From: an uncultured archaeon
Lineage (GTDB): Archaea; Asgardarchaeota; Lokiarchaeia; Sigyniarchaeales; SOKP01
Assembly: GCA_964486045.1 (NCBI GenBank)
Contig: CAZALK010000004.1
Span: 1-64,000 of the forward strand
Length of the DNA: 64,000 bases
Reading direction: 5' to 3'
The notes under the pieces are model-generated. The model worked only from the letters and a program-made list of their open reading frames with translations. It ran no database searches and was not told where the DNA came from. Below are positions 4,817-60,654 of the stretch, one piece after another (the stretch's first letter is position 1; every line of letters begins with the position of its first letter). The translations under genes were made by a program, and so were the position numbers.

Positions 4817-4835
4817 AATCACTGGATAACAATAC
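4817..4835 (+). repeat. 19-bp direct repeat, copy 2 (LRR gene 3'-end remnant)
   Basis: Identical to 937-955. The flanks translate LKTNHWITI here versus LKANHWITI in the LRR gene. Confidence 0.85.
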
Positions 4836-5205
4836 ATCAATTAACCTACATATAATACTTGTAATTTCAGTGAAAAAGTCATTTATCTCCCCCGTATCCT
4901 CATTCATGTAAAGTCCGCGATTTAGCTCAAATGATGTTTTTAACAATCTACGGTCAAATTTTTTATCTTTTTTTCTTAGTTATAATAATTAATATAGAAT
5001 AGTTCTTATCATAGGCTATAATAAATTTATTTTAAATTTTAAAATTAAATAGTTATTAATAAAGTATTTCTGAGACTAATAATGCATAACGCAAATTAAA
5101 TGAAATTGAATACCTAAACTGGCTTATTGGGCAACCTTACAATGTTTCGATGGCTATCACAATCGAAGGGAATTTAAATAAAGAAATTGTGAGAAGATAT
5201 TCTAA

Positions 5206-20873: not shown

Positions 20874-20886
20874 CGTGAAATAACCG
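20874..20886 (+). repeat. Half site CGTGAAA-TAACCG (leftmost copy seen)
   Basis: Exact; between convergent genes. Confidence 0.95.
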
Positions 20887-23590: not shown

Positions 23591-23603
23591 CGTGAAACGG
23601 TTA
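23591..23603 (-). repeat. Half site CGTGAAA-CGGTTA
   Basis: Exact; between divergent genes. Confidence 0.95.
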
Positions 23604-23823: not shown

Positions 23824-25353
23824 ATGAAGAAGTTGTTGCAGAAACAAGAATTTCAATGGGTAAAAGAGAAATTACTCCCTCTGTTTGGTTTGCTAAATAT
23901 CGGTAATAGAAGGATTAAGGGAAATATTGGTGAGTTGTTCATTTTTCCAATGAGTAAAGAAAATATAATCTTTAATTTAATGCGAATAACTAATAAAGAA
24001 AAAAATGAAGTTATCAAACTACTGAAACAATTTGAAAAAAAATTTCAAAATTTTGTAAATACTGAATCAAAGAAAAATGAGTTAATATATTACACATCTT
24101 CCCCACGAAAACATTTTTCCGTAAGTAGAAAATGCCTAAATTCTAATGATTTAGATTTCTCATCGGAGTATTATGTATTAAAGAAGAAACTAGAGGAATT
24201 ATCTAGAAAATCAATTGAAAATTTAACTTTTAATGCTGAAGAAATTTACCAGACATTAATTCATAATTCTCATACTATAAATCATTTAATAATCCTTGCT
24301 TTACTGACCAACATCACCCGTGTACTCTTTTATGAGAAATTTTATAAACTTGATACAACAAAATATGGACCTCAGAAAAAAGATATTATAAAAATTCTGA
24401 AAAAGGCTGAATTAGATGAAAAATTCATACTACGATATATTGAAGATTTCAACTATGATCTAATTTATCAAATATTGTCTTATGATAAAATTTTTTATGC
24501 TATAATTTATTCTCATGAATTTAACAGTGGTACTTGTTATCGAAGTGATAATCTATTAATAGTGAAGGATGTTGCTCAAAAAATACATGAAAAATTAGAA
24601 AAAGTCGATTTTATCGGAACAATAAGTACAAAATATAAAAAAATTAAAAATAAATTAGAAAATGAACTCGATAGATTACCTTTGTTTGAATATAAAGATA
24701 GGAAGATTGAATTCCTTACAGAAAATGGTAATAACTACAAAATTCTAAACCCAAATGAACCTTTCTTAACTTTCAATGCAGAAAATTATAAGGCAGAATA
24801 TCAATGGTTTGAAAAAAATGGTTTTTTCAAAATTAAAAATAATTTGATAACTATTAATCCAGGGATGGAAGAAAGCTTTAAGTCTTTTTTTGAAAATACA
24901 AAAAGAGTAGAAGATGCAAGAATAGAACAAAATATGAGAGATCTTTTGGAACTTTGGTTAAACTTAGATTTTAATTTAAAAGAAGAAAAACTCAGAATTA
25001 TAGATAAATCTTCTGATTTCGACACTATTAAAATAAAGAAAAAACCTTTTCTTGATAATTTAACACCTTTAGAAGATGAGTTAAAAATATCTGATGAAAT
25101 ACAAATAAGAGGTTATGCTCTTAAATTGTATGAGGTGTTTTTAAAAAATCCCAGTAAAAAAAATGTAGATAAACTGCTAGGGTCGTTAAATCAGCGTATA
25201 GAAAATTGGAAGCCTGAACAAAAGAATGTAATACTTAGTGAACTTAAAATACTTATTGAAACAGAAAAAGATATTAATCCTAAATGGAAGAAATATAGTA
25301 AAATACTATTGAAGAGCCTGTTTTCTATGTATAGCTTAAAATTTCCTTCGTGA
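23824..25353 (+). CDS. Hypothetical protein; stop codon lies within repeat site
   Basis: 509-aa ORF ending TCG-TGA in TCGTGAAATAACCG. Confidence 0.75.
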   Translation: MKKLLQKQEFQWVKEKLLPLFGLLNIGNRRIKGNIGELFIFPMSKENIIFNLMRITNKEKNEVIKLLKQFEKKFQNFVNTESKKNELIYYTSSPRKHFSVSRKCLNSNDLDFSSEYYVLKKKLEELSRKSIENLTFNAEEIYQTLIHNSHTINHLIILALLTNITRVLFYEKFYKLDTTKYGPQKKDIIKILKKAELDEKFILRYIEDFNYDLIYQILSYDKIFYAIIYSHEFNSGTCYRSDNLLIVKDVAQKIHEKLEKVDFIGTISTKYKKIKNKLENELDRLPLFEYKDRKIEFLTENGNNYKILNPNEPFLTFNAENYKAEYQWFEKNGFFKIKNNLITINPGMEESFKSFFENTKRVEDARIEQNMRDLLELWLNLDFNLKEEKLRIIDKSSDFDTIKIKKKPFLDNLTPLEDELKISDEIQIRGYALKLYEVFLKNPSKKNVDKLLGSLNQRIENWKPEQKNVILSELKILIETEKDINPKWKKYSKILLKSLFSMYSLKFPS

Positions 25354-25361
25354 AATAACCG
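25349..25361 (+). repeat. Half site CGTGAAA-TAACCG
   Basis: Exact; overlaps the stop codon of 23824-25353. Confidence 0.95.
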
Positions 25362-26471: not shown

Positions 26472-26484
26472 CGTGAAATAACCG
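26472..26484 (+). repeat. Half site CGTGAAA-TAACCG
   Basis: Exact; between convergent stops. Confidence 0.95.
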
Positions 26485-28838: not shown

Positions 28839-28851
28839 CGTGAAACGGTTA
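28839..28851 (-). repeat. Half site CGTGAAA-CGGTTA (extended family-alpha flank to 28884)
   Basis: Exact; between divergent genes. Confidence 0.95.
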
Positions 28852-28953
28852 GTTCATTTAAAATAATCTAGTTAATTCATGAAATGAAGAGAAAAATTTT
28901 ATCCTAAATTAAAAAATAGGAATAATATTTTAGAATCAAAATTTAATTCAATT

Positions 28954-30423
28954 ATGTTAAATGAAATTAAGCTTAGTATTCATCAAATAGTAGAATTACT
29001 AATAGACTCATATAAAACTATTGACTACAGATGTATTTTATATAAAAAACATGATAATTGGAATCGAATTTTAACGGTCTTAAGATTTTCTAATCAGTCG
29101 CAAGAAGAGATAAATCATAGATTTTTAGATCTGAGTTTGAATAAATTTAGTATAAAAAATTTGAAAATTGAATATGGAGTTATTAACATTTCCGAATGGG
29201 AATCTTTTCTCATAGGAATTTATGATGACTTAAATGAAGAAGTAGAAATATTTGAACCAAATGAATTCCATTATAATTATAAAGAGTATGAAAAATACGA
29301 AGAATCATTCCTAAGTGAATTTAAAGCATCAATTAACACAAAATCAGCAAGATCCTCTCTTCTAACTGAAAATGAGATTAAAAACTATAATATTATTAAT
29401 TATTATTACTGCCTTCACGATCTAAATGAACACCACAATAAATTTAGCGACTCTTTAAACGAGGAGGTGATGTTATTAGGAGAAGACAACATTTACGATG
29501 TTATCAATAGAGTGATGCAACTTGATGGATATAGTTCTCAAAATAGCCTATACATCTCAATCTTGATGCCCATTTATATAAAAATTAGAAATCTATCTTA
29601 TGAATCCAGTAAATTATCAGGTACAATAGAATTTCATAAGATCTTTAGTGGTTCAAAAATCTTTTTTAGGATTTTTTCTGAACCTACTTATAAGATAGCA
29701 TCATTAAAAGGAACAGAAGAGCTCTCAATTGATTTCGAGCATAAAGGAGCCAAGGCCATAAAACATGAATATTATGAAATCCCTATTTTGATTGACTTCA
29801 AAAATTATGATTGTGATCCCAATTTTGAGATTAGAGTTTTTTGGGAGAAATTCCACGAAAATTATTTAGTAACTTTTCAGAAATCTTTTGGTTCTCCTAG
29901 ATATATGCAACAATTTGAAGAATTGAAAGTAGATTTATCAGAGGGAATCCAGAATCTTGAAATATCAAATTATCAATACTTAATTGATCCTGGGATATCT
30001 ATAGATGATGATTATAAAAAAATAATTACAAATATTAATGAAGCATTTAAAAGAGGTTTATATGACTGTGTTTACATCTTAGTAAGAAAATTACTTGAAA
30101 ATTATTTAATTGATTGCTTAAGATTATATTATTCGATGAAGCAAACAGACAAATTTTACAACAAGGGTAAATTTCTCTCATTTAACACACTTAAATTAAA
30201 CTTCAATAAGATGATTAATGAAGATAATTTTAGAGCTGCAGTTAGTCCGATCCAGCAAGCAATTATAGATTATTTAGATATTTTTAGAGAATCAGGAAAT
30301 GCGAGTGCTCATTCATTTTTTAGTATAGATCACCAACAAATAATGGAAGATAATAAAGAAAGACTAAAGATTCTCTTAGAATTACTTTCGAAAATCTTTC
30401 GAGGATTAAAAAAAGTATCGTAA
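28954..30423 (+). CDS. Hypothetical protein with C-terminal HEPN/DUF4145-like domain (paralog of 42088-43566)
   Basis: LVRKLLEN...FRESGNASAH; alignable end to end with 42088-43566. Confidence 0.75.
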   Translation: MLNEIKLSIHQIVELLIDSYKTIDYRCILYKKHDNWNRILTVLRFSNQSQEEINHRFLDLSLNKFSIKNLKIEYGVINISEWESFLIGIYDDLNEEVEIFEPNEFHYNYKEYEKYEESFLSEFKASINTKSARSSLLTENEIKNYNIINYYYCLHDLNEHHNKFSDSLNEEVMLLGEDNIYDVINRVMQLDGYSSQNSLYISILMPIYIKIRNLSYESSKLSGTIEFHKIFSGSKIFFRIFSEPTYKIASLKGTEELSIDFEHKGAKAIKHEYYEIPILIDFKNYDCDPNFEIRVFWEKFHENYLVTFQKSFGSPRYMQQFEELKVDLSEGIQNLEISNYQYLIDPGISIDDDYKKIITNINEAFKRGLYDCVYILVRKLLENYLIDCLRLYYSMKQTDKFYNKGKFLSFNTLKLNFNKMINEDNFRAAVSPIQQAIIDYLDIFRESGNASAHSFFSIDHQQIMEDNKERLKILLELLSKIFRGLKKVS

Positions 30424-30697: not shown

Positions 30698-30710
30698 CGT
30701 GAAACGGTTA
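30698..30710 (-). repeat. Half site CGTGAAA-CGGTTA
   Basis: Exact; intergenic. Confidence 0.95.
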
Positions 30711-30995
30711 TTCATTTATCCTAGCAGTTTTAGACTAGATACGTTAAATAACTGTTATATTTAGAAAAAGTTTATTATAACCTAAAAAGTATAAATTTAT
30801 ACATAATCTAATAATTTATGAATTTTTTACTTTTTGTTTTCTTGTAAATATTTAACTGCTTTCAAAAGAATGAGAGGATTTTACTAACATTTTCCTATGG
30901 GACGATTACAATTATGGCACATAATCCCTCTAATCTTTCCAGCTTTGTAGTTATGGTCAGTATCTCGCTTATAATCGCAAGAATAGCAAGAAATT

Positions 30996-32641: not shown

Positions 32642-32661
32642 CGTGAAATAACCGTTTCACG
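32642..32661 (+). repeat. Complete central site CGTGAAA-TAACCG-TTTCACG (putative recombination site)
   Basis: The only copy with both 7-bp inverted arms around the TAACCG core; polarity of all half sites switches here. Confidence 0.95.
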
Positions 32662-32865: not shown

Positions 32866-33819
32866 ATGAAAAGAATAAATTCCACTAAAATTATTAGTAT
32901 AATCAATTGGAAAGGTGGAGTGGGTAAGACTACTTGTGCAGTTAACATTGCTGCAGAATGGGCAGATATGAATAAAAAAATATTATTAATAGATATTGAT
33001 GCACAAGCATCTGCTTCAGCTTATCTCTACACGGAAGAGAAATATAAAGTGGAATATTTTAATCCAATTTTAGAAGCTTTAAGAACGAGAAAAGAAGAAA
33101 ATGTGGCTAAAGATATAGCAATCAAGAAATCAATTTATGGTGTATTTTGGGATGCAATCAAGGATACAAATCTTTTTTCAAAAAACAGTGGGATAAAAAA
33201 AAGCTTAGGAGATTTAAGAACCCTAGATCTAATTCCATCAACATTTTATTTAAATGAACTTGAGCAAGAAATTTCTTCTGCTTCGAGTACTCAAGGATTA
33301 TCTCCCTTCAATATTCTTAGACTAGGTTTAAACAAACATGAAATTTTAGAAAATTATGATTATGTTTTAATAGACTGTCCACCAAACCTTAACTTGATTA
33401 CTTTAAATGCTATTTTCGCATCAGATTACTATCTTATTCCAACAATCCCAGATCAATTGTCAACATTAGGGTTACCTTTGTTAATAAGAAGATTGCAAAC
33501 CGTGAAAAAGCGGAGATTGGAATTAGATGGAAATGACCCAAAACTTTTAGGAATTATACTTACAAAAGTTTCTCATCAATTAAGGGGCATACAAACATCA
33601 TGGATTGAGGTACAAATTCCTTGGATGTTAGAGCGTTTTATTGAAGATAAATTAGTTTGGAATAAATCTAAAATATATGAAAATTACATTAAAGAAGCGG
33701 TAGATATTCAAAAAGCTATGGAAGAGTCTAGACCATTATGCACATCAAAAGAAAAATCTAAAGAAATTAGAATAAGATATCAAAATTTAGCGAAAGAAAT
33801 AATCCAAACCATCTCTTAA
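32866..33819 (+). CDS. parA: ParA/Soj/MinD-family ATPase
   Basis: NWKGGVGKTT deviant Walker A, LIDIDAQ, YDYVLIDCPPN, ASDYYLIP. Confidence 0.92.
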   Translation: MKRINSTKIISIINWKGGVGKTTCAVNIAAEWADMNKKILLIDIDAQASASAYLYTEEKYKVEYFNPILEALRTRKEENVAKDIAIKKSIYGVFWDAIKDTNLFSKNSGIKKSLGDLRTLDLIPSTFYLNELEQEISSASSTQGLSPFNILRLGLNKHEILENYDYVLIDCPPNLNLITLNAIFASDYYLIPTIPDQLSTLGLPLLIRRLQTVKKRRLELDGNDPKLLGIILTKVSHQLRGIQTSWIEVQIPWMLERFIEDKLVWNKSKIYENYIKEAVDIQKAMEESRPLCTSKEKSKEIRIRYQNLAKEIIQTIS

Positions 33820-33846
33820 TTAAGTATAACCTAATGTGGCTTAAAA

Positions 33847-34437
33847 ATGCGTGAACAAGAAGTATCAATCAATATCCTTAATGGTCTCCTAGATTTCTCT
33901 AAAAAATATCCAAATTCTATCGATTGGAAGAAATTTGAAAAAGAATCGATTAAGATGGAATCTAAATTTAAAAATTTAATAATTCCTTCAAATAATGTTA
34001 AAAATATATTTTCTAATCGAAGTTATTTTAAAAATTTGAACGAAATCAAGGGATTTATGAGTAAAAATTTCAAACATAACATTAAAGAACGAACTACAGT
34101 AGGGGTTTTATCTTATATTACATACATTACTATAAAAAACCCCAGTTTGATATTAAAAATCGAAAATATCATTAAAGCTAAGTCAAAAATTATTATTCCA
34201 AAAAAAAAGCCTCAACCAAGGATTAGTCAACCAAATAAATCATGGAAGGAATGGACTAAATATGAATCAGAAGAATTACATAAACATCTGGATAAGTTAA
34301 CACTTACTCAAATTAAACCCAAGTTGGGGAAATTACTATCTTCTAGTGAAAAAAAACTTAGAAAAGCAGAACTTATTGATGTTATAGTTAAAAAAATTAC
34401 AAAATTGAAAATTCATTATGAAATGGGACCCGGATGA
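33847..34437 (+). CDS. Basic hypothetical protein downstream of ParA (possible DNA-binding partner)
   Basis: Lys-rich 196 aa; C-terminal LDKLTLTQIK..KLRKAELID helical motif. Confidence 0.65.
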   Translation: MREQEVSINILNGLLDFSKKYPNSIDWKKFEKESIKMESKFKNLIIPSNNVKNIFSNRSYFKNLNEIKGFMSKNFKHNIKERTTVGVLSYITYITIKNPSLILKIENIIKAKSKIIIPKKKPQPRISQPNKSWKEWTKYESEELHKHLDKLTLTQIKPKLGKLLSSSEKKLRKAELIDVIVKKITKLKIHYEMGPG

Positions 34438-34934
34438 TACGACGCAAGAAAGTTATGTTCGAGGAGGATCTTCACGAAATATTTTATAGGTTTCCTTATT
34501 TAATTGTAAATAAAACAGCTTCTATTATTAATACAATTCATGAATACAGGCTTGATTCTGCTTCTATCCCAGATATCTACATTGAAACTCTTTTTAAAAA
34601 ATATTATTGTGAAGTAAAACTGGGAAATTTAAAAGAAATTGATCTATATCAAGCAATACGGTATTCAAATACGATTAAAACCCAAATTGATAACCATGAA
34701 ATTCAAGAGGATTCTAAAAAATCTATAATTATTCTTATTGGAATAAATATCTCAAGTAATTTAGAGGATATGGCAAAAAAAAAGGACATTTCAGTGAAAA
34801 TAATTGGCAGGAACATTCCTGAATCTATAACTATATGCAAAAATTGTAGAAAGGCATATGATTCTAAAGTATTTTGTTGTAGCTTTTGTAATTCAAATGA
34901 AATTCTCGAAGTCATAACTTTGAAATATAAGTAA
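34434..34934 (+). CDS. Small NucS-like PD-(D/E)xK protein with C-terminal Zn ribbon
   Basis: EEDLHE..IPDI..CEVKLG..QAIRY; CKNC..CSFC. Confidence 0.7.
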   Translation: MIRRKKVMFEEDLHEIFYRFPYLIVNKTASIINTIHEYRLDSASIPDIYIETLFKKYYCEVKLGNLKEIDLYQAIRYSNTIKTQIDNHEIQEDSKKSIIILIGINISSNLEDMAKKKDISVKIIGRNIPESITICKNCRKAYDSKVFCCSFCNSNEILEVITLKYK

Positions 34935-35705: not shown

Positions 35706-36309
35706 AAACTGTATCGATCAAATAGTTTTGCCCCAAACATATTTAATGTCCTTTTTAGTCGTGCTAGAAGATGTCTTGTATTGTTCTCTCACGAGGCTAT
35801 ATCCCGCAAAAATATAGTATTAAATTTAGCAAAGTTATGGATTGATACTTATCGTGAGTTCAAGATCCGTGGAGAAATATAAGCTTTTCAACCGGATTTC
35901 CTGATTTGTTTGGTAGCTTGTTTTCTTAATTTTGTATTTAATGGTTTAGAATTAGTTAAAATCCTATTTCATTTTCTTAACTTAAATCTTTCGATCCATC
36001 AAATCATATCAAGTAATTTGGCTTTAGTAAAGCAATATTTTGATTCTCTGTCCGTAGAGTAATCATATGTGTAGATTTTATTATTTGTTTTACCTTTAAA
36101 TTAGTGATTGAAATTTAGTACAGCCTTAATTATCTGATCCTGATATTCAAAATACATTTCTTGATTTTAATAAGAGCTTTTTTATTACTGGCTAAAATGC
36201 TTTAATACTTGAAATCCCAAATCTTATCCTTTATTTTGTTTTTCTTAAAAATGAATACTTAATCTCATATGTTGTTTCACGAATTAATTAGATTATTTTA
36301 AACAAACAA

Positions 36310-36322
36310 TAACCGTTTCACG
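36310..36322 (+). repeat. Half site TAACCG-TTTCACG (family-alpha element 36274-36322)
   Basis: Exact; extra arm GTTTCACG at 36274-36281. Confidence 0.95.
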
Positions 36323-36437: not shown

Positions 36438-38702
36438 TTGAGGTTTATGCTTATGAGGATAAAATTGAGTGAATTTAGAATTCGTAATTTTAGATGTATC
36501 GATGATAGCGATTGGATAAAAGTTGAAGATATAACCTCCCTAGTAGGAGTTAATGAATCTGGAAAAACAGCTTTATTACAAGCATTATTGACTTTAAACC
36601 CCGGAAGTGGAGAAATAGACATAGATTACATTAGAGATTTCCCTAGAGCGAGATTGACTGAAGAGTATACTGAAGACTCTACCCTTGCTGAAGGTCGTTA
36701 TGTAATTCCTAAAGATTACCTAAATAAGAAATTAGGATTAAATAAATTAAATATAAATCCTAATAAAGAAATAATTTTAACCTTAAAAAGAAAATATGAT
36801 AAAAAATTATATTATAATTTTAATATTGAACTTGGAAAAAAATTTATCCCACAATTAAAAAAAGTATTACAAGAAGCTAGGAAAAATCTTTCCCGTAAAA
36901 ATGTTGATCAAATTCCTCAAATTCCTGAAACTCCCAAAAAAGAGGAAGAACAGGATACTCAGACTGAAGATATAAAAGATGATCAAATCAAAAGATTCAC
37001 AGAAAAAATTAAAAATAATCTTGTCGAACTTATCAATCTATACCTAAAGGAAATTGAGATCTCTTTTAAAGAAAAAAAGATCTTCAATACCCCAGAAAAA
37101 AGAGAAGAGATCAAACAAAAAATAAATATGTATAACCAAGCTTTGGGAGAATATTTTCAAACAGCAGAAAATGAGTTAAGAGATTTGCTTGATTATTTTG
37201 AAGAATTGTTAAACAATTTAGAAGGAAAAAGTCTTAGCGAGAAATTATATGACCTAGTTAAACAAGATCTTCCTGTATACATCTACTTCGAAGACTATAA
37301 TATCTTGGATGGGAGCATAATAATATCTAATTTAGTAAAAGCCATTCAAGGAGATATAAAATTTAAGGGATTTAAAATACAGGAAACTTTATTCAAACAT
37401 GTAAATTTGGATCCAATAGAAATTTATGAACTCGGGTCAACGAAACTTACAGATACACAAAAAATTGAACTTAATTCTAGAATACAGCAGAAAAATATAA
37501 ATGCGGACCAAGTTACGAATGATTTTTATGAAAAAGTGTCTAAAGAAAAGCAACAAAAATTAAAAAAAAGAAAGATCTTATTAGATTCTGCTTCTCAATT
37601 AATGACAAAGACATTGAATAAATATTTTCAAGAAAGAAACTATAAAGTTGAGTATGATACCGATGGTCAATTCTTACAAATTCTTATTTGGGATGATGTA
37701 AGACCGTCCAAAATAAATTTAGAGGAAAGAAGTAAAGGATTTAGATGGTACTTTTCATTTTTTCTTGTGTTTTTAGTAGAATCTGAGGGAATGCATAAGA
37801 ATGCAATTCTATTATTAGATGAACCAGGGATTCATTTACATTTACAAGCTCAATTTAATCTTATCAATTTTTTTCAAAAATTAGAAGAATCTAATCAAAT
37901 CATTTATTCTACCCATTCTCCATTCTTGATAGATGAATATCATTTAGAACAAGTAAGATCTGTTTATGAGGATGAAAAAGGTATAACCCATGTTACTGAT
38001 AATAACCTAATTCCAGATAAGAAATCTATATTCCCACTACAAGCGGCGTTAAGTTATAAAACTAGTCAGGTAATCTATCAAGGTTTAAAACAGCTTCTTG
38101 TAGAGGGTGATAGTGATTTTAACTATATAAAATCAATAAATTATATTTTAGAGAAAAGTGGGAAAAAATCACTTGATAAAGATATTGTTATAATACCGTG
38201 TAAAAGTGCTTCAAAAATTGATATGTATGCAAGACTATTTATTGATTTAGAGAACGTTCCTGTAGTTCTACTTGATTCAGATGCTGAGGGGAAAAGGGTT
38301 TTTGATGCTCTTACTGAAAAACTTTTTTCAAAAAATAAAAAAAATGTGTTAATGATAGGAGATTTTCTTAAGGATAGTTACGATACTGAAATTGAGGACC
38401 TTATAGGAAGAGAGCTCTTAGTGGATTGTATTAACAAAAATAATATTACTCAATTGCCTGTTTCATTAGATGAGATAGAAGATGGTACATTTGTTGATAA
38501 ACTAGTTGATTACTGTAACAAAAATAAAATCCCATTTAATGATAAATTAAATTGGAAATATGAAATATCATTAAAGTTTAAAAATAGTATATTAAGTGAA
38601 GATATTCATAAAATTATAGGTAAAATAACCCCTGAAAAACTTGGAGATTTTGAAAATCTAATTGGAAAAATAAATCGGAATGCTAAAAAGAAAGTCGATT
38701 AA
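36438..38702 (+). CDS. OLD-family-like ABC ATPase with TOPRIM domain
   Basis: IRNFRCI, GVNESGKT, RSKGF, LLLDEPGIHLH, YSTHSPF, LLVEGDSD, LLDSDAEG. Confidence 0.88.
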   Translation: MRFMLMRIKLSEFRIRNFRCIDDSDWIKVEDITSLVGVNESGKTALLQALLTLNPGSGEIDIDYIRDFPRARLTEEYTEDSTLAEGRYVIPKDYLNKKLGLNKLNINPNKEIILTLKRKYDKKLYYNFNIELGKKFIPQLKKVLQEARKNLSRKNVDQIPQIPETPKKEEEQDTQTEDIKDDQIKRFTEKIKNNLVELINLYLKEIEISFKEKKIFNTPEKREEIKQKINMYNQALGEYFQTAENELRDLLDYFEELLNNLEGKSLSEKLYDLVKQDLPVYIYFEDYNILDGSIIISNLVKAIQGDIKFKGFKIQETLFKHVNLDPIEIYELGSTKLTDTQKIELNSRIQQKNINADQVTNDFYEKVSKEKQQKLKKRKILLDSASQLMTKTLNKYFQERNYKVEYDTDGQFLQILIWDDVRPSKINLEERSKGFRWYFSFFLVFLVESEGMHKNAILLLDEPGIHLHLQAQFNLINFFQKLEESNQIIYSTHSPFLIDEYHLEQVRSVYEDEKGITHVTDNNLIPDKKSIFPLQAALSYKTSQVIYQGLKQLLVEGDSDFNYIKSINYILEKSGKKSLDKDIVIIPCKSASKIDMYARLFIDLENVPVVLLDSDAEGKRVFDALTEKLFSKNKKNVLMIGDFLKDSYDTEIEDLIGRELLVDCINKNNITQLPVSLDEIEDGTFVDKLVDYCNKNKIPFNDKLNWKYEISLKFKNSILSEDIHKIIGKITPEKLGDFENLIGKINRNAKKKVD

Positions 38703-38769: not shown

Positions 38770-38782
38770 CGGTTATTTCACG
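38770..38782 (-). repeat. Half site CGGTTA-TTTCACG
   Basis: Exact; between convergent genes. Confidence 0.95.
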
Positions 38783-39921: not shown

Positions 39922-39934
39922 TAACCGTTTCACT
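39922..39934 (+). repeat. Half site TAACCG-TTTCACt (12/13)
   Basis: One mismatch; between divergent genes. Confidence 0.88.
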
Positions 39935-40016: not shown

Positions 40017-41270
40017 ATGAATAACAAATTTATTAGGAAATTATATTCTCGGGATTTTGGATTTTTTAAAGAACTAGGGATTGATTTTAATCCTAAATTT
40101 AATTATATAGTAGGACCAAATGCGAGTGGAAAATCTACGATTCTAAAATATATTGCACTAGCATTTACCACAAATCGTAATGATTTTAAGATTTTTAGAT
40201 TCGGTGATAATCCTGAAAATTGGATAGAATACTATGAAAATGAGCAAATCTATCGAATAGGATGGGGAGATAGATTTATTTTAGGAAATTCTATTTATAG
40301 AGAAAGAAGGGATTTAAGATATGTTTCTCCGCCTAAAATTAATGGTGTCCGCCCATTGAGACCTAATGATCTTGAAAATGATAACATTAGAGTTGCACCA
40401 TTATTTATAGGTGCTTACAGAAGAATCAATTATAAAAAAATTGAAGGGATGGTTAAAGAGCAAGATGCCCCCATGCAAAGAGCTGATTATCGGAATATTG
40501 GCATAAGTAATCTAGAAGGTATAAAATTACCTCAAGTAAAACAGTGGATGATAAATAGATATTTTCAAATTGAAAAAGATTGGGCAGAAATTGAACGTAA
40601 AAATTGGAAATGGCTAATGACCAACATGTTTAAAATCGCTCCAGAGGGGACCCAATTTAATTTTATGGAAATTAGAAAAAATTTGGAATTAAACTTTATA
40701 TTAGATGATGTACTTTGTTTTCTTGAAGAACTCTCTGCAGGATATCAAGCCTTTCTTTCGATGGTGTTACACATATTTGATTGGATCGAAGGGATTAATG
40801 AAATTGATGAGGAACGAATAGTTCAATTTGCAGAGGGAACTGTCATTATAGATGAATTAGATGTTCATATGCATCCTGAATGGCAATTAAATGTAAGAAA
40901 TTCGTTAGATCAAATTTTCCCAAAACTTCAATTTATAGTTACAACTCACTCTCCTCATTTAATTGCTACAGCAAATAAAAATGAAATAATTATTCTTGAT
41001 GGTACATCAAGAGAGCTTTTTACTAAACCTGTAAATAAATCTTATTCTGGATGGACTACAGATTTGATATTAGAAGATGTAATGGGTGTTAAAAACCTAG
41101 TAAATAAGAAATACAACCAGTTATTACAGAAGTGTTTGAGTGCTATCGATCTTAATGATATAGCCGGATTAGAAAAAGCAATTGCGGAATTTGAAGAAAT
41201 AACACATCCCAAAGATACTATAATTACTGAATTAAGAATTGTTTTATCTAAAATGATTGCTAACAAATGA
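40017..41270 (+). CDS. ptuA: PtuA-like (Septu-type) ABC ATPase
   Basis: GPNASGKS, LSAGYQ, IIDELDVHMHPEWQ, QFIVTTHSP; followed by an HNH gene. Confidence 0.78.
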   Translation: MNNKFIRKLYSRDFGFFKELGIDFNPKFNYIVGPNASGKSTILKYIALAFTTNRNDFKIFRFGDNPENWIEYYENEQIYRIGWGDRFILGNSIYRERRDLRYVSPPKINGVRPLRPNDLENDNIRVAPLFIGAYRRINYKKIEGMVKEQDAPMQRADYRNIGISNLEGIKLPQVKQWMINRYFQIEKDWAEIERKNWKWLMTNMFKIAPEGTQFNFMEIRKNLELNFILDDVLCFLEELSAGYQAFLSMVLHIFDWIEGINEIDEERIVQFAEGTVIIDELDVHMHPEWQLNVRNSLDQIFPKLQFIVTTHSPHLIATANKNEIIILDGTSRELFTKPVNKSYSGWTTDLILEDVMGVKNLVNKKYNQLLQKCLSAIDLNDIAGLEKAIAEFEEITHPKDTIITELRIVLSKMIANK

Positions 41271-42042
41271 TACTATGATTTATATTAATAAGCCATCGAC
41301 TCCACCAAGTTCTCTCTCAAATTTTAAAGCAATAATGAAAGACTTAATTCTTCGATTTGGATCATATGATAATATTCCAGAGGATGAGAAAAATAAATTC
41401 ATTAATGGATATCGTCATCCGGAAGTAAGAGAAAGATTATTTAGTTGTAGTTTTGGGAAATGTGCTTATTGTGAATTGATCCCAGAAGGAAGTTCACTTA
41501 GGGTTGAACATTTTCATCCTAAATCTATATATCCTGAAGAGATTCTTGATTGGAGTAACCTTTTACCTTCTTGTGAAAAGTGTAATGCTTATAAATATAC
41601 ACATGATACTAAAGTCGATCCGATTATTAATCCATGTGAAACCGATCCATCCCTTTATTTTATTTATGATACCTTTAGAATTCTAGCATCTCCCACAGCT
41701 CCTAACCTCTCTCTTGCTAGTAAAACAATAAATACCTGTAACTTAAATCGTCCAGAATTAATTAAAAGCAGATCCAATATTTTAGCAAAAATGACTGATT
41801 ATATAAATGATATTGAAGACAAAATTATTGAACTGCAGAGTAATCCTTCTGATTTAATTATCAGGAGAAGAGTTCTCGCAATTGAAGAATCTTTTGACAC
41901 TATTGAAAATATGGCGGAAAAAGATAAACACCATTCGGCCTTAATTAGATATCGGTTATATAATAGTTTAGATATTTCGCAAAAAAGAAATTTCTTGGAG
42001 AATCTTAAAACAAGCTATTCAAGAATATTTCAAAATTTATAA
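41257..42042 (+). CDS. ptuB: PtuB-like HNH endonuclease
   Basis: KCAYCE..VEHFHPKS..WSNLLPSCEKCN..IINPC..LNRPEL. Confidence 0.8.
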   Translation: MLTNDTMIYINKPSTPPSSLSNFKAIMKDLILRFGSYDNIPEDEKNKFINGYRHPEVRERLFSCSFGKCAYCELIPEGSSLRVEHFHPKSIYPEEILDWSNLLPSCEKCNAYKYTHDTKVDPIINPCETDPSLYFIYDTFRILASPTAPNLSLASKTINTCNLNRPELIKSRSNILAKMTDYINDIEDKIIELQSNPSDLIIRRRVLAIEESFDTIENMAEKDKHHSALIRYRLYNSLDISQKRNFLENLKTSYSRIFQNL

Positions 42043-42047
42043 TATCA

Positions 42048-42060
42048 TGGTAATTTCACG
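42048..42060 (-). repeat. Degenerate half site tGGTaA-TTTCACG (11/13)
   Basis: Just after the HNH stop, 32 bp before an exact copy. Confidence 0.7.
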
Positions 42061-42079: not shown

Positions 42080-42092
42080 CGGTTATTTCACG
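42080..42092 (-). repeat. Half site CGGTTA-TTTCACG
   Basis: Exact; contains the stop codon of 42088-43566. Confidence 0.95.
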
Positions 42093-43566
42093 AAATTCCT
42101 TGAATATTTTTCAGTAGAACTCTATTGATTTTAAATAAAAATTCTAATAATATTTTTAATTTTTCTGCATTATCCTCCATTATTGGTTTATGATCAGTAC
42201 TGAAAAATGAATGAGCGCTCGAATCGCCCATTTCCTTAAATATTTCCAAGTAATCAACTGTATTTTGCGGTATAGGACCTACCAAAGCTTTAAACTTTTC
42301 TTCATTAATCATCCTATTGAAATTTAACCTTAATTCACTAAAAGGGAGAAATTTACCGTTTCTGTAAAACGTTTCTACGTTTTTAATTGAATAATATGCT
42401 CTTAAACAATCTATTAGTTGGTTTTCAAGTAATTTTCTTACTAATACATAAGCACAATCATAATAACCTTTATTATATGTATTATTGATAGAAGTAATTA
42501 TTTTTTTATAATCATCATCTATAGAGATTGAAGGATTGATTAAGACACGGAATTCTAACGTTTCGGAATCATGATCATCTTCTATTAATTCAGCCCTTTG
42601 ATCTTCAAATTCCTGGAAGTATCTTGGAGATCCAAAAGATTTTTGGAAGTCAACGATATAATTTTCATTAAATTTTTCCCAATATATTTTTATTTCAAAA
42701 TTGGGGTCACAATCATATTTACTAAAATCTATATCGAAAGGAATTTCATAGTAATCATTATGAATGATAGTAGCTTCTTTAGTTTCAAAATCAATTAAAA
42801 ATTCTTCCGTTCCACATAATGATTCATTCTCATAGTTTGGTTTAGAAAAAATTCGGAAGAAGATTTTTGATCCAAAAAAAATTTTATGAAAATCTACTTT
42901 TCCTGATAATATACCCTTTTCGGAATTAAGCTCTTTAATTCTTACATAAATAGGTAAAATAATAGAAACATATAAACCATTTTGGGAGCCATATCCATCA
43001 AGTTGCATGACTCGGTTGATAATATTATAAATATTATCCTCTCCTAGAAGTCTAACTTCTTCGTTTAGATAAATATTAAATCTATTATGATGTTCATTTC
43101 GATCGGGAGTACTATAATAATAATTAATGATATTATGATGTTTAACCTCATTTTCAGTGAGAAGGAGTCTTGCTGTTTTAGTGTTATAAATCGATCTGAA
43201 ATCATCAAGAAAAGATTCTCTATATTCTTCATATTTATTATTATCATAATAAAACTCATCGGTATCATATATTTCTATGTCTTCATTAATCTCATCATAT
43301 ATCTCAATAATTATTTCCTCCCATCCGGAGACATCAATAACTTCATATATGATCTTAAGATTTTTGATGTTGAATTTCTTTAATTCCAAGTCAATGAATC
43401 TTCTTTTAATGTCATCTGCATTTTCATTAGAAAATCTTAATACGGTAAGAATTCGGTTCCAGATTCCATCTTTTCTATATAATACACATCTGAAGTCAAT
43501 GTATTTGTAAGAGTCTTTAAGTAGTTCCAATGTTTGATGAATACCAAGTTTAATCTGTTTGAACAT
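42088..43566 (-). CDS. Paralog of 28954-30423 with C-terminal HEPN/DUF4145-like domain
   Basis: Shares WNRILTVLRFSN, INRVMQLDGY, YDCDPNFEI, FQKSFGSPRY, LVRKLLEN, SAHSFFS. Confidence 0.75.
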   Translation of the reverse strand: MFKQIKLGIHQTLELLKDSYKYIDFRCVLYRKDGIWNRILTVLRFSNENADDIKRRFIDLELKKFNIKNLKIIYEVIDVSGWEEIIIEIYDEINEDIEIYDTDEFYYDNNKYEEYRESFLDDFRSIYNTKTARLLLTENEVKHHNIINYYYSTPDRNEHHNRFNIYLNEEVRLLGEDNIYNIINRVMQLDGYGSQNGLYVSIILPIYVRIKELNSEKGILSGKVDFHKIFFGSKIFFRIFSKPNYENESLCGTEEFLIDFETKEATIIHNDYYEIPFDIDFSKYDCDPNFEIKIYWEKFNENYIVDFQKSFGSPRYFQEFEDQRAELIEDDHDSETLEFRVLINPSISIDDDYKKIITSINNTYNKGYYDCAYVLVRKLLENQLIDCLRAYYSIKNVETFYRNGKFLPFSELRLNFNRMINEEKFKALVGPIPQNTVDYLEIFKEMGDSSAHSFFSTDHKPIMEDNAEKLKILLEFLFKINRVLLKNIQGIS

Positions 43567-43649: not shown

Positions 43650-43662
43650 TAACCGTTTCACG
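43650..43662 (+). repeat. Half site TAACCG-TTTCACG
   Basis: Exact; between divergent genes. Confidence 0.95.
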
Positions 43663-46366: not shown

Positions 46367-46379
46367 CGGTTATTTCACG
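46367..46379 (-). repeat. Half site CGGTTA-TTTCACG
   Basis: Exact; 40 bp after the ATPase stop. Confidence 0.95.
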
Positions 46380-46579
46380 AAAAATTATTCAATATCTATT
46401 AGTTTTTAATAATTCTTTAAGATTTTACTGTGAAATTCACTCATAATTTATAATGTCTTGTGTATTAATTTCTTGTTTATTAAAAACTTATTTTAACCTT
46501 CTTCTCAAATTTGATTAAGATGATTATAGCCTATTACGTTTTGGTTTCACGAATTAACTAGATTATTTTAAATAAGCAT

Positions 46580-46592
46580 TAACCGTTTCACG
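46580..46592 (+). repeat. Half site TAACCG-TTTCACG (family-alpha element 46544-46592)
   Basis: Exact; extra arm at 46544-46551. Confidence 0.95.
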
Positions 46593-46624: not shown

Positions 46625-47734
46625 TCAATTAGATTTATCCAATATCCGTTTTATTCCATCCTGTGTTGATTTCACATTAATAAATTTATTATAATAGTTT
46701 ACAAACTCATTATTATTCAAGACTTCATTCAAAATTTCTTTTTCTGTTTTATTATTAAACCATTGAAAAAATTCTTCAACAAATTCAAAAATAAGATCTT
46801 TATCTATACTAATACTTAATAGAGCAGCATCTACAGTTTTAATTAAAAGAATAATTTTCAGAAAATTCTCAAACACATCATCAATAGTCCATTCAACGGT
46901 TTCATAATTATAATTTTTAAACAAGACTTTAGTTTTATTGAAATCAGGTTTATATTCAATTTTAAAGTTTGAATGAAAAATTGAATTTCTGTATTCTTGG
47001 AAAACAGGATTTTGCCTAAGAATCCAAAACAGTTTACCTAATGTATAAGAATCTACGTCAAATTCTTTCCCCTGCAATAAGTTATCCAGTTTTAATATCA
47101 ACCTTAACACATTTTTTACATGACTTTCAATTATAAAGCTAAGTTTAATCAATAAATCAAATATAAATATCTCAAAATTTCTTTTATCATATTCTTTTAG
47201 AGAAGTCTTAAATTCCTCAAAATGCATCTTAAATAGAAGAATTGAAAAACTATTGGAATCGTCGTTATGTTTAACAAAAATTTCTCTTACAACTAAAAAA
47301 GAATTAATAATTTTCTCTATTTCAAATAAGTCTTTACTAACTCTTGAATACTCCTCAAGAATATTGCTTGAAATAACAGAATTCTTTTCTCGGGACTTTA
47401 AAATATATCCTACCAATTCATTATATAGATTAATATCAATTTCCCCTGATTTAAAAATGATCTTTTCAACACTATTAACTAGATTAAATATGAATTTATT
47501 TATCGAATCTTGAATATTATTATCCTTAAAACATCTAATAATTGCATTTATTTGTTCTCTGTTATTTTTAGAATTCATAAAATTAGACCAATAATTGAGA
47601 AATATTTTTTGTAAATCTGGATCTCCAAGAGTTTTTCTCCAACTATCAATGATATTTTCGATTATAGGATCCATTTCTTTGGAAATTTTATTTAAATCAA
47701 AGGTTACTAACAGTTTTTTACTCTTATCTAACAA
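46625..47734 (-). CDS. Hypothetical protein with HEPN-like motif
   Basis: IIESHVK..TLGKL..YRNSIFH (RxxxxH). Confidence 0.65.
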   Translation of the reverse strand: MLDKSKKLLVTFDLNKISKEMDPIIENIIDSWRKTLGDPDLQKIFLNYWSNFMNSKNNREQINAIIRCFKDNNIQDSINKFIFNLVNSVEKIIFKSGEIDINLYNELVGYILKSREKNSVISSNILEEYSRVSKDLFEIEKIINSFLVVREIFVKHNDDSNSFSILLFKMHFEEFKTSLKEYDKRNFEIFIFDLLIKLSFIIESHVKNVLRLILKLDNLLQGKEFDVDSYTLGKLFWILRQNPVFQEYRNSIFHSNFKIEYKPDFNKTKVLFKNYNYETVEWTIDDVFENFLKIILLIKTVDAALLSISIDKDLIFEFVEEFFQWFNNKTEKEILNEVLNNNEFVNYYNKFINVKSTQDGIKRILDKSN

Positions 47735-49898: not shown

Positions 49899-49911
49899 CG
49901 GTTATTTCACG
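49899..49911 (-). repeat. Half site CGGTTA-TTTCACG (family-beta flank to about 49978)
   Basis: Exact; flank homologous to 32601-32654 (reverse) and 63766-63845. Confidence 0.95.
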
Positions 49912-50037
49912 TATTTCTACAAAAACTATTCTAAAAATCATTATTCCCTGTATTTTAATGGTCACAGAATCAATTTATGTAAAAATTAGTTCTTAATTTT
50001 CAATAACTAGACGTTTAAATTTTAACTTTTAGTTCTG

Positions 50038-50050
50038 TAACCGTTTCACG
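50038..50050 (+). repeat. Half site TAACCG-TTTCACG
   Basis: Exact; contains the stop codon of 50046-50759. Confidence 0.95.
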
Positions 50051-54311: not shown

Positions 54312-54335
54312 TGCGTGAAAACTACGTTTCACGCA
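54312..54335. repeat. Second complete palindrome TGCGTGAAA-ACTACG-TTTCACGCA with variant core
   Basis: 9-bp perfect inverted arms around a 6-bp core that differs from TAACCG. Confidence 0.9.
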
Positions 54336-54379: not shown

Positions 54380-54392
54380 TAACCGTTTCAGA
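54380..54392 (+). repeat. Degenerate half site TAACCG-TTTCA(-)GA
   Basis: One-base deletion relative to consensus; next to the stop of 54397-54969. Confidence 0.75.
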
Positions 54393-56201: not shown

Positions 56202-56214
56202 TAACCGTTTCACG
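56202..56214 (+). repeat. Half site TAACCG-TTTCACG
   Basis: Exact; intergenic. Confidence 0.95.
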
Positions 56215-60503: not shown

Positions 60504-60516
60504 CGGTTATTTCACG
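60504..60516 (-). repeat. Half site CGGTTA-TTTCACG
   Basis: Exact; intergenic. Confidence 0.95.
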
Positions 60517-60641
60517 AAACCCTTGAATTTTTAGGCATTAAAAACTCTCTTCTAAAGACTTGTCCTAACTTTCATTATTTATTATTAAGAAATCTCATAT
60601 TTTACTATGACTATAATGAAGAATTATTATTTTTAATTCAG

Positions 60642-60654
60642 TAACCATTTCCCG
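60642..60654 (+). repeat. Degenerate half site TAACCa-TTTCcCG (11/13)
   Basis: Same spacing from the preceding site as the 49899/50038 pair, and a similar 5' flank. Confidence 0.65.

Follow-up and report, generated by a model that had tools for sequence, protein, structure and literature searches.

Integrative mobile elements exploiting Xer (IMEX) comprise the CTX, TLC and VGJ phages of Vibrio, the gonococcal island and LME-1 of Legionella. When these elements integrate, the complete recombination site is restored and a partial one remains at the far end of the insert, and elements therefore stack beside the complete site. Xer/dif sites in general consist of two inverted arms separated by 6-8 central bases, and dif is present once per chromosome, at the replication terminus. 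The attP of TLC-type elements retains only one good arm, and completion of strand exchange by replication or by a resolvase is found in CTX phage and in integron reactions (PMC5357621). On Acinetobacter plasmids, adaptive modules are bounded by pdif (xrs) sites, which are complete two-armed XerC/XerD sites, and plasmid Xer sites with shared arms recombine there only if their central regions match (bioRxiv 10.1101/2024.04.09.588662). Integrons combine one privileged site with a row of mobile cassettes, and defence is a common cargo of the chromosomal ones. In the R64-type shufflon (Rci, sfx), asymmetric sites with a conserved core and one conserved arm adjoin rci and alternate in whole-site orientation, and inversions between them reshuffle segments and switch the C-terminus of one gene. 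The locus described below resembles each of these systems in part, and its layout points to an undescribed gene-capture platform.

The locus lies in the first 64 kb of the 300-kb contig C4 (CAZALK010000004.1, assembly GCA_964486045.1) from an Asgard archaeal MAG of 5.18 Mb in 45 contigs; these 64,000 nucleotides, the whole stretch of DNA that was analysed, are called the window, and positions without a contig name refer to it. The assembly is rated 7.8% contaminated, and two short contigs, C40 and C45, with a G+C content of 58-59% compared with 31% for the genome, are probably foreign. G+C content is 27% in the window and about 31% in the genome. A scan of the window for tRNAs and Rfam families found none. 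Near the middle of the window, at 32642-32661, stands a complete site composed of a CGTGAAA arm, a 6-base core TAACCG and the inverted arm TTTCACG, and this site with its TAACCG core has no second copy in the 5.18-Mb genome. The arm 7-mer CGTGAAA occurs 28 times in the window, compared with 4.4 expected and a maximum of 12 across 100 shuffles. The 13-mer of arm plus core, in either core orientation, has 20 copies genome-wide, and all 20 fall within C4:20874-67261, a stretch of about 47 kb. Arm followed by TAACCG is called type A and arm followed by its complement CGGTTA type B; the complete palindrome contributes one of each to the 20 copies. When base frequencies are compiled from about 130 half sites and 89 complete sites, the arm lengthens to about 9 bases, TTCGTGAAA. 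From its sequence features, the locus is probably a Xer-type site-specific recombination platform which stores and shuffles modules, most of them for anti-virus defence.

Each half site is the left or the right portion of the complete site, ending at the far end of the core, and both core orientations occur among the half sites. All module borders except one are single-armed. To the left of 32642 there are six exact half sites with the arm on the plus strand in 6/6, and to the right there are 12 with the arm on the minus strand in 12/12, ten of them inside the window and two past it (C4:65141 and C4:67249). The first-pass annotation had counted six left and ten right exact half sites in the window with arms always pointing away from the complete site; the same counts were recovered, and the two sites farther out follow the rule without exception. 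Copies with one or two mismatches obey it as well, namely that at 30742 on the left (plus) and those at 39922, 42048, 54380, 60642, 63766, 65971 and 67386 on the right (minus), which agrees with the five degenerate right copies first reported in the window and adds two beyond it. The sole exception is an intragenic two-mismatch match at 47367 (plus), in keeping with the genomic background of about 1.2 such matches per 47 kb. For random orientations, with any switch point permitted, a perfect split of 16 exact sites has p ~5e-4. The strand of the arm tracks the side of the centre, while genes run both ways on either side; no gene is split by the array sites, and the arms do not alternate along the array. 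A switch of polarity could in principle follow a chromosome-wide skew switch, which the annotation had named as an observation that would speak against its reading. The 13-mer is absent outside the 47-kb stretch, so the switch does not reflect origin or terminus skew, and the cumulative skew of C4 has no clear turning point near 32.6 kb in this assembly of 45 contigs.

On the left arm of the array, the outermost exact half site is of type A (20874-20886, plus). It is followed toward the centre by a type B site separating divergent genes (23591-23603, plus), a type A site overlapping the stop codon of the ORF at 23824-25353 (25349-25361, plus) and a further type A site (26472-26484, plus). A type B site (28839-28851, plus) forms the outer border of the module carrying the ORF at 28954-30423, and the last exact left site, again of type B (30698-30710, plus), precedes the two-mismatch type A copy at 30742-30754. 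Outside the outermost half site, positions 1-20800 of the window hold defence-type genes up to the contig end, including an MvaI/BcnI-type enzyme with methylases, DUF4268, HNH and LRR proteins. No copy of the 13-mer with up to two mismatches is present in positions 1-20800, and the defence island therefore exceeds the site-bounded array.

The half sites to the right, listed here, have the arm on the minus strand. The module adjoining the complete site carries a ParA-like ATPase operon (32866-34934), which includes genes of 196 and 166 aa without a family match, and its outer border is a type B site at 36310-36322, with a core-less arm at 36275-36281, 41 bases ahead. An OLD-family nuclease, alone in its own interval (36438-38702), is ended by a type A site at 38770-38782. 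Next comes a Septu pair, PtuA at 40017-41270 (3e-145) and PtuB at 41257-42042 (8e-67), with a one-mismatch type B copy at 39922-39934, a degenerate copy at 42048-42060 and an exact type A site at 42080-42092 which ends the module. The type B site at 43650-43662 is the outer border of the gene at 42088-43566, a mirrored paralogue of that at 28954-30423. Farther out are a type A site at 46367-46379 and a type B site at 46580-46592 with an extra core-less arm at 46545-46551, followed by a pair of sites at 49899-50050 (type A at 49899-49911 and type B at 50038-50050) with a gene-less unit of about 138 bases inside. At 54314-54333 the same arms form another perfect palindrome, around the spacer ACTACG; this spacer is carried by no half site, and the two-mismatch half site that follows the palindrome at 54380-54392 is of the TAACCG kind. 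A type B site at 56202-56214, a second pair at 60504-60654 (type A at 60504-60516 and a two-mismatch type B copy at 60642-60654, enclosing a second 138-base unit) and a one-mismatch type A site at 63766-63778 complete the window, and the array runs on past it to C4:67398. In this window type B sites are often at gene starts and type A sites often at gene ends. A block of about 49 bases, found at 36275-36322 and 46545-46592 and inverted at 28839-28884, consists of two co-oriented arms 41 bases apart with a conserved AT-rich spacer and a core after the inner arm only, and could be an accessory binding site.

The intervals between sites contain one to six genes each, in both directions. Beside the systems named above, the cargo includes a PDC-S11 candidate defence protein, an ATPase/phosphoesterase pair, DNA methylases, restriction enzymes of the MjaI and MvaI/BcnI types and a CARF-HTH protein, and many cargo proteins are without a family match. 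The modules are hypervariable and consist mostly of defence genes. A ParA-like operon is also found beside the complete site in locus L096, where it is mirrored, and at about 19.1-20.0 kb of G018:C57, which amounts to two or three of about 90 arrays, and no ParB was found alongside the ParA-like gene. This operon looks like cargo rather than machinery.

The same layout is found in other genomes. A scan of 185,579 species-representative genomes detected the same 20-mer complete site in 9-10 other Asgard MAGs. It is also present on 93 metagenome contigs, 80 of which were retrieved. When about 90 independent contigs are oriented on the complete site, all 45 left half sites are on the plus strand and all 52 right ones on the minus strand (97/97), and the MAG arrays inspected over longer range follow the same polarity rule. 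The annotation had named half sites that break this rule in other arrays as a second observation that would refute it; the half sites there uphold the rule. Numbers of left and right sites are unequal in most arrays, as they are here (6 and 12 exact). Gene content is nearly unshared, the largest family among the 607 clustered ORFs of about 90 arrays being present in nine loci, and no recurrent recombinase or transposase is among them. Flanks of the arrays in eight genomes have almost no synteny within 20-70 kb and so gave no chromosomal anchor. Two single loci may be mentioned here. On a 75-kb contig of a MAG labelled Patescibacteria (L019, JANBVM010000001.1) there is a full array that agrees with the others in site and polarity; the G+C content of the contig is 26% across the 8-kb stretch retrieved, and it is probably a misbinned Asgard contig. 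At G062:C61:321-415, two half sites with identical plus-strand cores, one left (type A) and one right, lie 82 bases apart, and the pair can be read, from coordinates only, as a complete site with a 69-base insert and a duplicated 6-base core.

Comparison between arrays locates the breakpoints of this variation. Loci L114 and L083 are about 97% identical over 300 bases through flank, arm and core, and diverge exactly after TAACCG. Past this point L114 has the right arm, and hence a complete site at the junction, and L083 reaches its own complete site only after four more half sites and about 7 kb of modules. Such a pair is what integration of the IMEX kind would produce, with a complete site restored and a partial one left behind. 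Modules are also found mirrored. The ParA module in L096 shares 90% protein identity with the one here and lies mirrored on the opposite side, its core being inverted relative to the module, and a two-gene block which adjoins the complete site in L084 is mirrored and one module away from it in L090. The paralogues at 28954-30423 and 42088-43566 mirror each other across the centre within the window, with homology starting from the arm of the outer type B site. Of 24 pairs of homologues with 70-95% identity from different arrays, 22 have the same orientation with respect to the centre, and opposite-side close homologues are mirrored in 8 of 9 pairs; the two pairs that break the orientation rule count against this reading. 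Distant homologues (<70%) obey no orientation rule (46 versus 38). The suggestion in the first-pass annotation that the complete site behaves as a movable cursor on a bidirectional array gains support from the sequence comparisons of L084 with L090, of the L096 ParA module and of L114 with L083, and recombination at the array sites may continue to the present day.

Cores of neighbouring sites tend to be opposite. Among the 61 neighbour pairs that include a complete site, 52 have opposite and nine the same cores, and half-half neighbours are opposite in 40 and the same in 17 pairs. Same-core half-half pairs are spaced farther apart, which is expected if a decayed site lies between them. About 14 of the opposite-core pairs are copies of the recurrent gene-less unit, 134-139 bases long; without them the bias is 47:9 beside the centre and only about 30:17 elsewhere. 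Addition of cassettes next to the centre, as at attI, had been proposed for this array: the accounting by which a complete site is regenerated holds, but the same-core neighbour state that such addition predicts is rare. The gene-less unit, bounded by a type B and a type A site, is present at 49899-50050, 60504-60654 and C4:67249-67398 in this genome and elsewhere at L004:65-216, L019:2600-2750 and 4825-4975, L025:2763-2914 and L011:1627-1778. Its copies share recognisable internal similarity and are often directly beside a complete site. The single-strand fold of the 138-base unit is no better than those of shuffled sequences (z = -1.24), and the consensus fold is weak (-5.9 kcal/mol). Possibly the unit is an empty module, or else an accessory element.

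The arms are not confined to the array. CGTGAAA-N6-TTTCACG has 11 copies in the genome, with a spacer of always exactly 6 bases that is different in each, and copies with a single arm mismatch number only two. Besides the TAACCG site and the ACTACG palindrome of the window (54314-54333), these are located at C1:397464, C2:296668, C5:254597, C7:89001, C9:189559, C10:38457, C13:58254, C20:71493 and C23:20516. The ten other palindromes are intergenic beside ordinary metabolic genes, some of them 8-40 bases past convergent stop codons. Same-arm palindromes are present in all 54 genomes of the genus, with 3-11 each, and in 27 of the 29 family genomes sampled, with 1-14 sites in nearly every one, and most of the other Asgard families sampled have none. 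Different species share spacers although the flanks change; the GGATGG-spacer site is a single-copy site in 31 of the 54 genus genomes. Sites that share arms and differ in spacers suggest a natural set of orthogonal recombination sites. In this genome only the TAACCG site bears an array. At the GAGGTG site (C9:189559), one same-core half site with correct polarity lies 1.6 kb to the right (C9:189559-191208), and the pair encloses a 309-aa ORF which is terminase-like by eye; the locus looks like a one-module array at a second docking site, and its flanks have nothing in common among three species. The GATGCG site (C1:397464; loci L145-L148) is a variable slot in an otherwise syntenic backbone. 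Two genes are found on either side of it depending on the species, without inversion, half sites or core remnants, and the recombination rule given below leaves this change of position unexplained.

Which enzyme acts on these sites can be narrowed down by elimination. The genome contains no serine recombinase and five tyrosine recombinases, none of them on the 300 kb of C4, and a tblastn search of the array loci with these five gave no match. Four are sporadic in the family, and among these the one on C29 is absent in all relatives searched. The protein encoded at C18:67235-68182 passes the NCBIfam equivalog recomb_XerA_Arch (247 bits, cut-off 220), and its best solved relative is XerA of Pyrococcus abyssi (4a8e, 5e-39). 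A single copy of xerA is present in 28 of 29 and in 53 of 60 family genomes. Since no other tyrosine or serine recombinase is conserved across the archaeal family, the enzyme is presumably the host XerA. The array arm ends in GAAA beside the central region, and arms of the single-recombinase Xer sites difH and difSL likewise end in GAAAA at this position (PMC5357621). Several observations speak against XerA. Homologues with 36-39% identity occur in families f17 and f26, whose searched genomes yielded no same-arm palindrome, and the published archaeal dif has 11-base arms with TAA-N6-TTA (PMC11840125), where the array arms have AAA-N6-TTT instead. Moreover, the 1.5 kb around xerA contains no palindrome in any of 30 family genomes, so that enzyme and site are not genetically linked. 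Two cases at 1.6-2.3 kb (G198 and G012) were considered as linkage and are too few to count.

Geometry of the complete site, with two inverted 9-base arms and a 6-base central region, fits a Xer-type tyrosine recombinase. Strands would be exchanged in the 6-base central region, and the two core ends would be the cleavage positions expected of such an enzyme. A simple rule is proposed, in which alignment of the cores would have to place an arm of each site on the same side for the two sites to react; in practice this amounts to identical 13-mers, and the complete site would count as either type. Sites of type A would not react with those of type B, since the bound monomers would be on non-equivalent arms. 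Matching sites in the same orientation would act as direct repeats for excision or integration, and opposed matching sites would invert the DNA they enclose. A circle with one half site could therefore integrate at a matching site, a complete site with a same-core neighbour would excise the module between them, and a complete site with an opposite-core neighbour would invert it, by which the complete site would cross that module. Every allowed reaction would preserve one complete site, outward arms and the orientation of modules relative to the centre. Same-core neighbours would be excisable and become lost, so surviving arrays would show alternating cores, and in this generalised form the rule can account for all four regularities. 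The recombination bookkeeping of the first-pass annotation comes out right with the proviso that only shared arm-plus-core 13-mers recombine. As a one-armed site allows only one pair of strand exchanges, completion is assumed to need replication or a junction resolvase. The ten other same-arm sites would be mutually non-reactive docking or binding sites for the same protein. A fuller version, offered tentatively, would have lokiarchaeal-type Asgard archaea run two-sided capture on their housekeeping XerA, with a dif-like site that wanders by inversion through the one-armed defence modules, taking up and releasing circles, and with about ten insulated docking sites per genome. If true, the locus would be an analogue of the integron with its recombinase in trans, and no domain of life has a described system of this architecture.

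Several other readings of the sites have to be weighed with this recombination platform. Strict polarity about a centre is also a property of Ter sites and KOPS, 11 same-arm palindromes are scattered in the genome and conserved across the family, and archaeal dif regions form SMC boundaries (PMC11840125). These points would suit arms that are polar protein-binding sites for chromosome organisation, among which defence genes merely accumulate; in variants of this idea, the arms would be Xer half sites that stop or unload SMC complexes, a replication-fork trap, or guides for a motor toward the complete site. We regard polar binding as improbable, since it does not explain the presence of the full 6-base core in half sites in exactly two cut forms, nor the end of homology between L114 and L083 exactly after the core, and the sites match the borders of modules that differ between genomes and are restricted to 47 kb. 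Ter, KOPS and Chi as such were rejected as candidates, because they need a spread over the replichore or terminus and all 20 copies are within 47 kb. The parS site is a 16-base palindrome of abutting TTTCAC and GTGAAA half sites bound by ParB. It was rejected too, the arms here standing in reverse order with a 6-base spacer and the opposite arrangement being absent from the genome.

Half sites might instead be the 13-base terminal inverted repeats of nested transposon-like elements, the complete site being the innermost empty target. Left and right type A sites are indeed perfect inverted repeats, and the half sites 82 bases apart at G062:C61 321/403 have their core duplicated like a target-site duplication. 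Nesting would nevertheless have to be perfect in every array to give the 97/97 polarity, left and right sites are unequal in number here and in most arrays, no transposase family recurs in about 90 arrays, and cores alternate rather than pair, all of which makes transposons quite unlikely. A transcription-factor regulon, with palindromes as operators or terminators and half sites as promoter- or terminator-linked remnants, draws on the intergenic position of the sites, on the frequent location of type B sites at gene starts and of type A sites at gene ends, and on a perfect dyad symmetry suited to a dimeric regulator. This is very unlikely to be correct: the arm strand tracks the side of the centre and not gene direction, some palindromes stand 8-40 bases past convergent stop codons, spacers are conserved across species while flanks change, and the recurring unit folds no more stably than its shuffled versions (z = -1.2). 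Archaeal MAGs are reported to contain integrons (PMC9668308), and a row of promoter-poor cassettes separated by short repeats recalls a classical integron or an integrase-less attC cluster. That the array is one of these can hardly be believed, for no integrase is near it (no Phage_integrase match on C4 or in the array loci), XerA reaches 100.7 versus 265 bits and 65.5 versus 435 bits on integron-integrase models, the 13-base sites have no folded palindrome of the attC type (attC being an imperfect palindrome of 60-140 bases which folds as a single strand), and the array is two-sided with mirrored polarity rather than one-directional. The classical integron was accordingly rejected as failing every defining feature tested. 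Aloposons, tRNA-integrating elements with giant genes (PMC8813620), were also compared and gave no match.

As a Xer-type platform, the array would be a new gene-capture architecture, with one complete site, one-armed borders, two-sided growth and no dedicated integrase. No description of this two-sided layout was found in the literature searched, which covered the motif, Asgard integrons, defence hotspots, archaeal IMEX and lokiarchaeal cassettes. Its setting is the archaeal group closest to eukaryotes, in which the biology of mobile elements is barely known. The 13-mer and its polarity furthermore provide a simple sequence rule for delimiting defence modules, and many of the single unknown genes between sites are therefore candidates for new defence systems.

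Among known systems, the integron is comparable in its privileged site, its row of mobile cassettes and its defence cargo. Unlike it, the array has neither IntI, folded attC, a common promoter nor a single direction, and its sites are 13-base duplexes. The shufflon has asymmetric sites with conserved core and one arm, as here, and inversions that reshuffle segments, but it has no complete site or centre. The pdif modules of Acinetobacter are closer, being adaptive modules between Xer-type sites with neighbours mostly in opposite orientation; they lack a centre and polarity, whereas the array sites are all one-armed but one, chromosomal, archaeal and of a single central region. With Xer/dif and IMEX the array shares inverted arms around a 6-base central region, a host recombinase acting in trans (here the candidate XerA) and junctions as expected where integration restores the complete site and a partial one is left at the far end. 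It differs from IMEX in accumulating up to 12 or more modules, which are single defence systems and not phages, in partial sites that stay exact rather than decaying, in about ten further complete sites per genome with other central regions and in an arm distinct from that of archaeal dif. Should XerA prove to be the enzyme, the locus would represent the exploitation of Xer by mobile elements in archaea, for which the literature searched contained no example. Because the arms of the array are identical, stacking on both sides of the complete site would be allowed, unlike in IMEX, and the array would then show how a symmetric site of a single recombinase permits bidirectional stacking.
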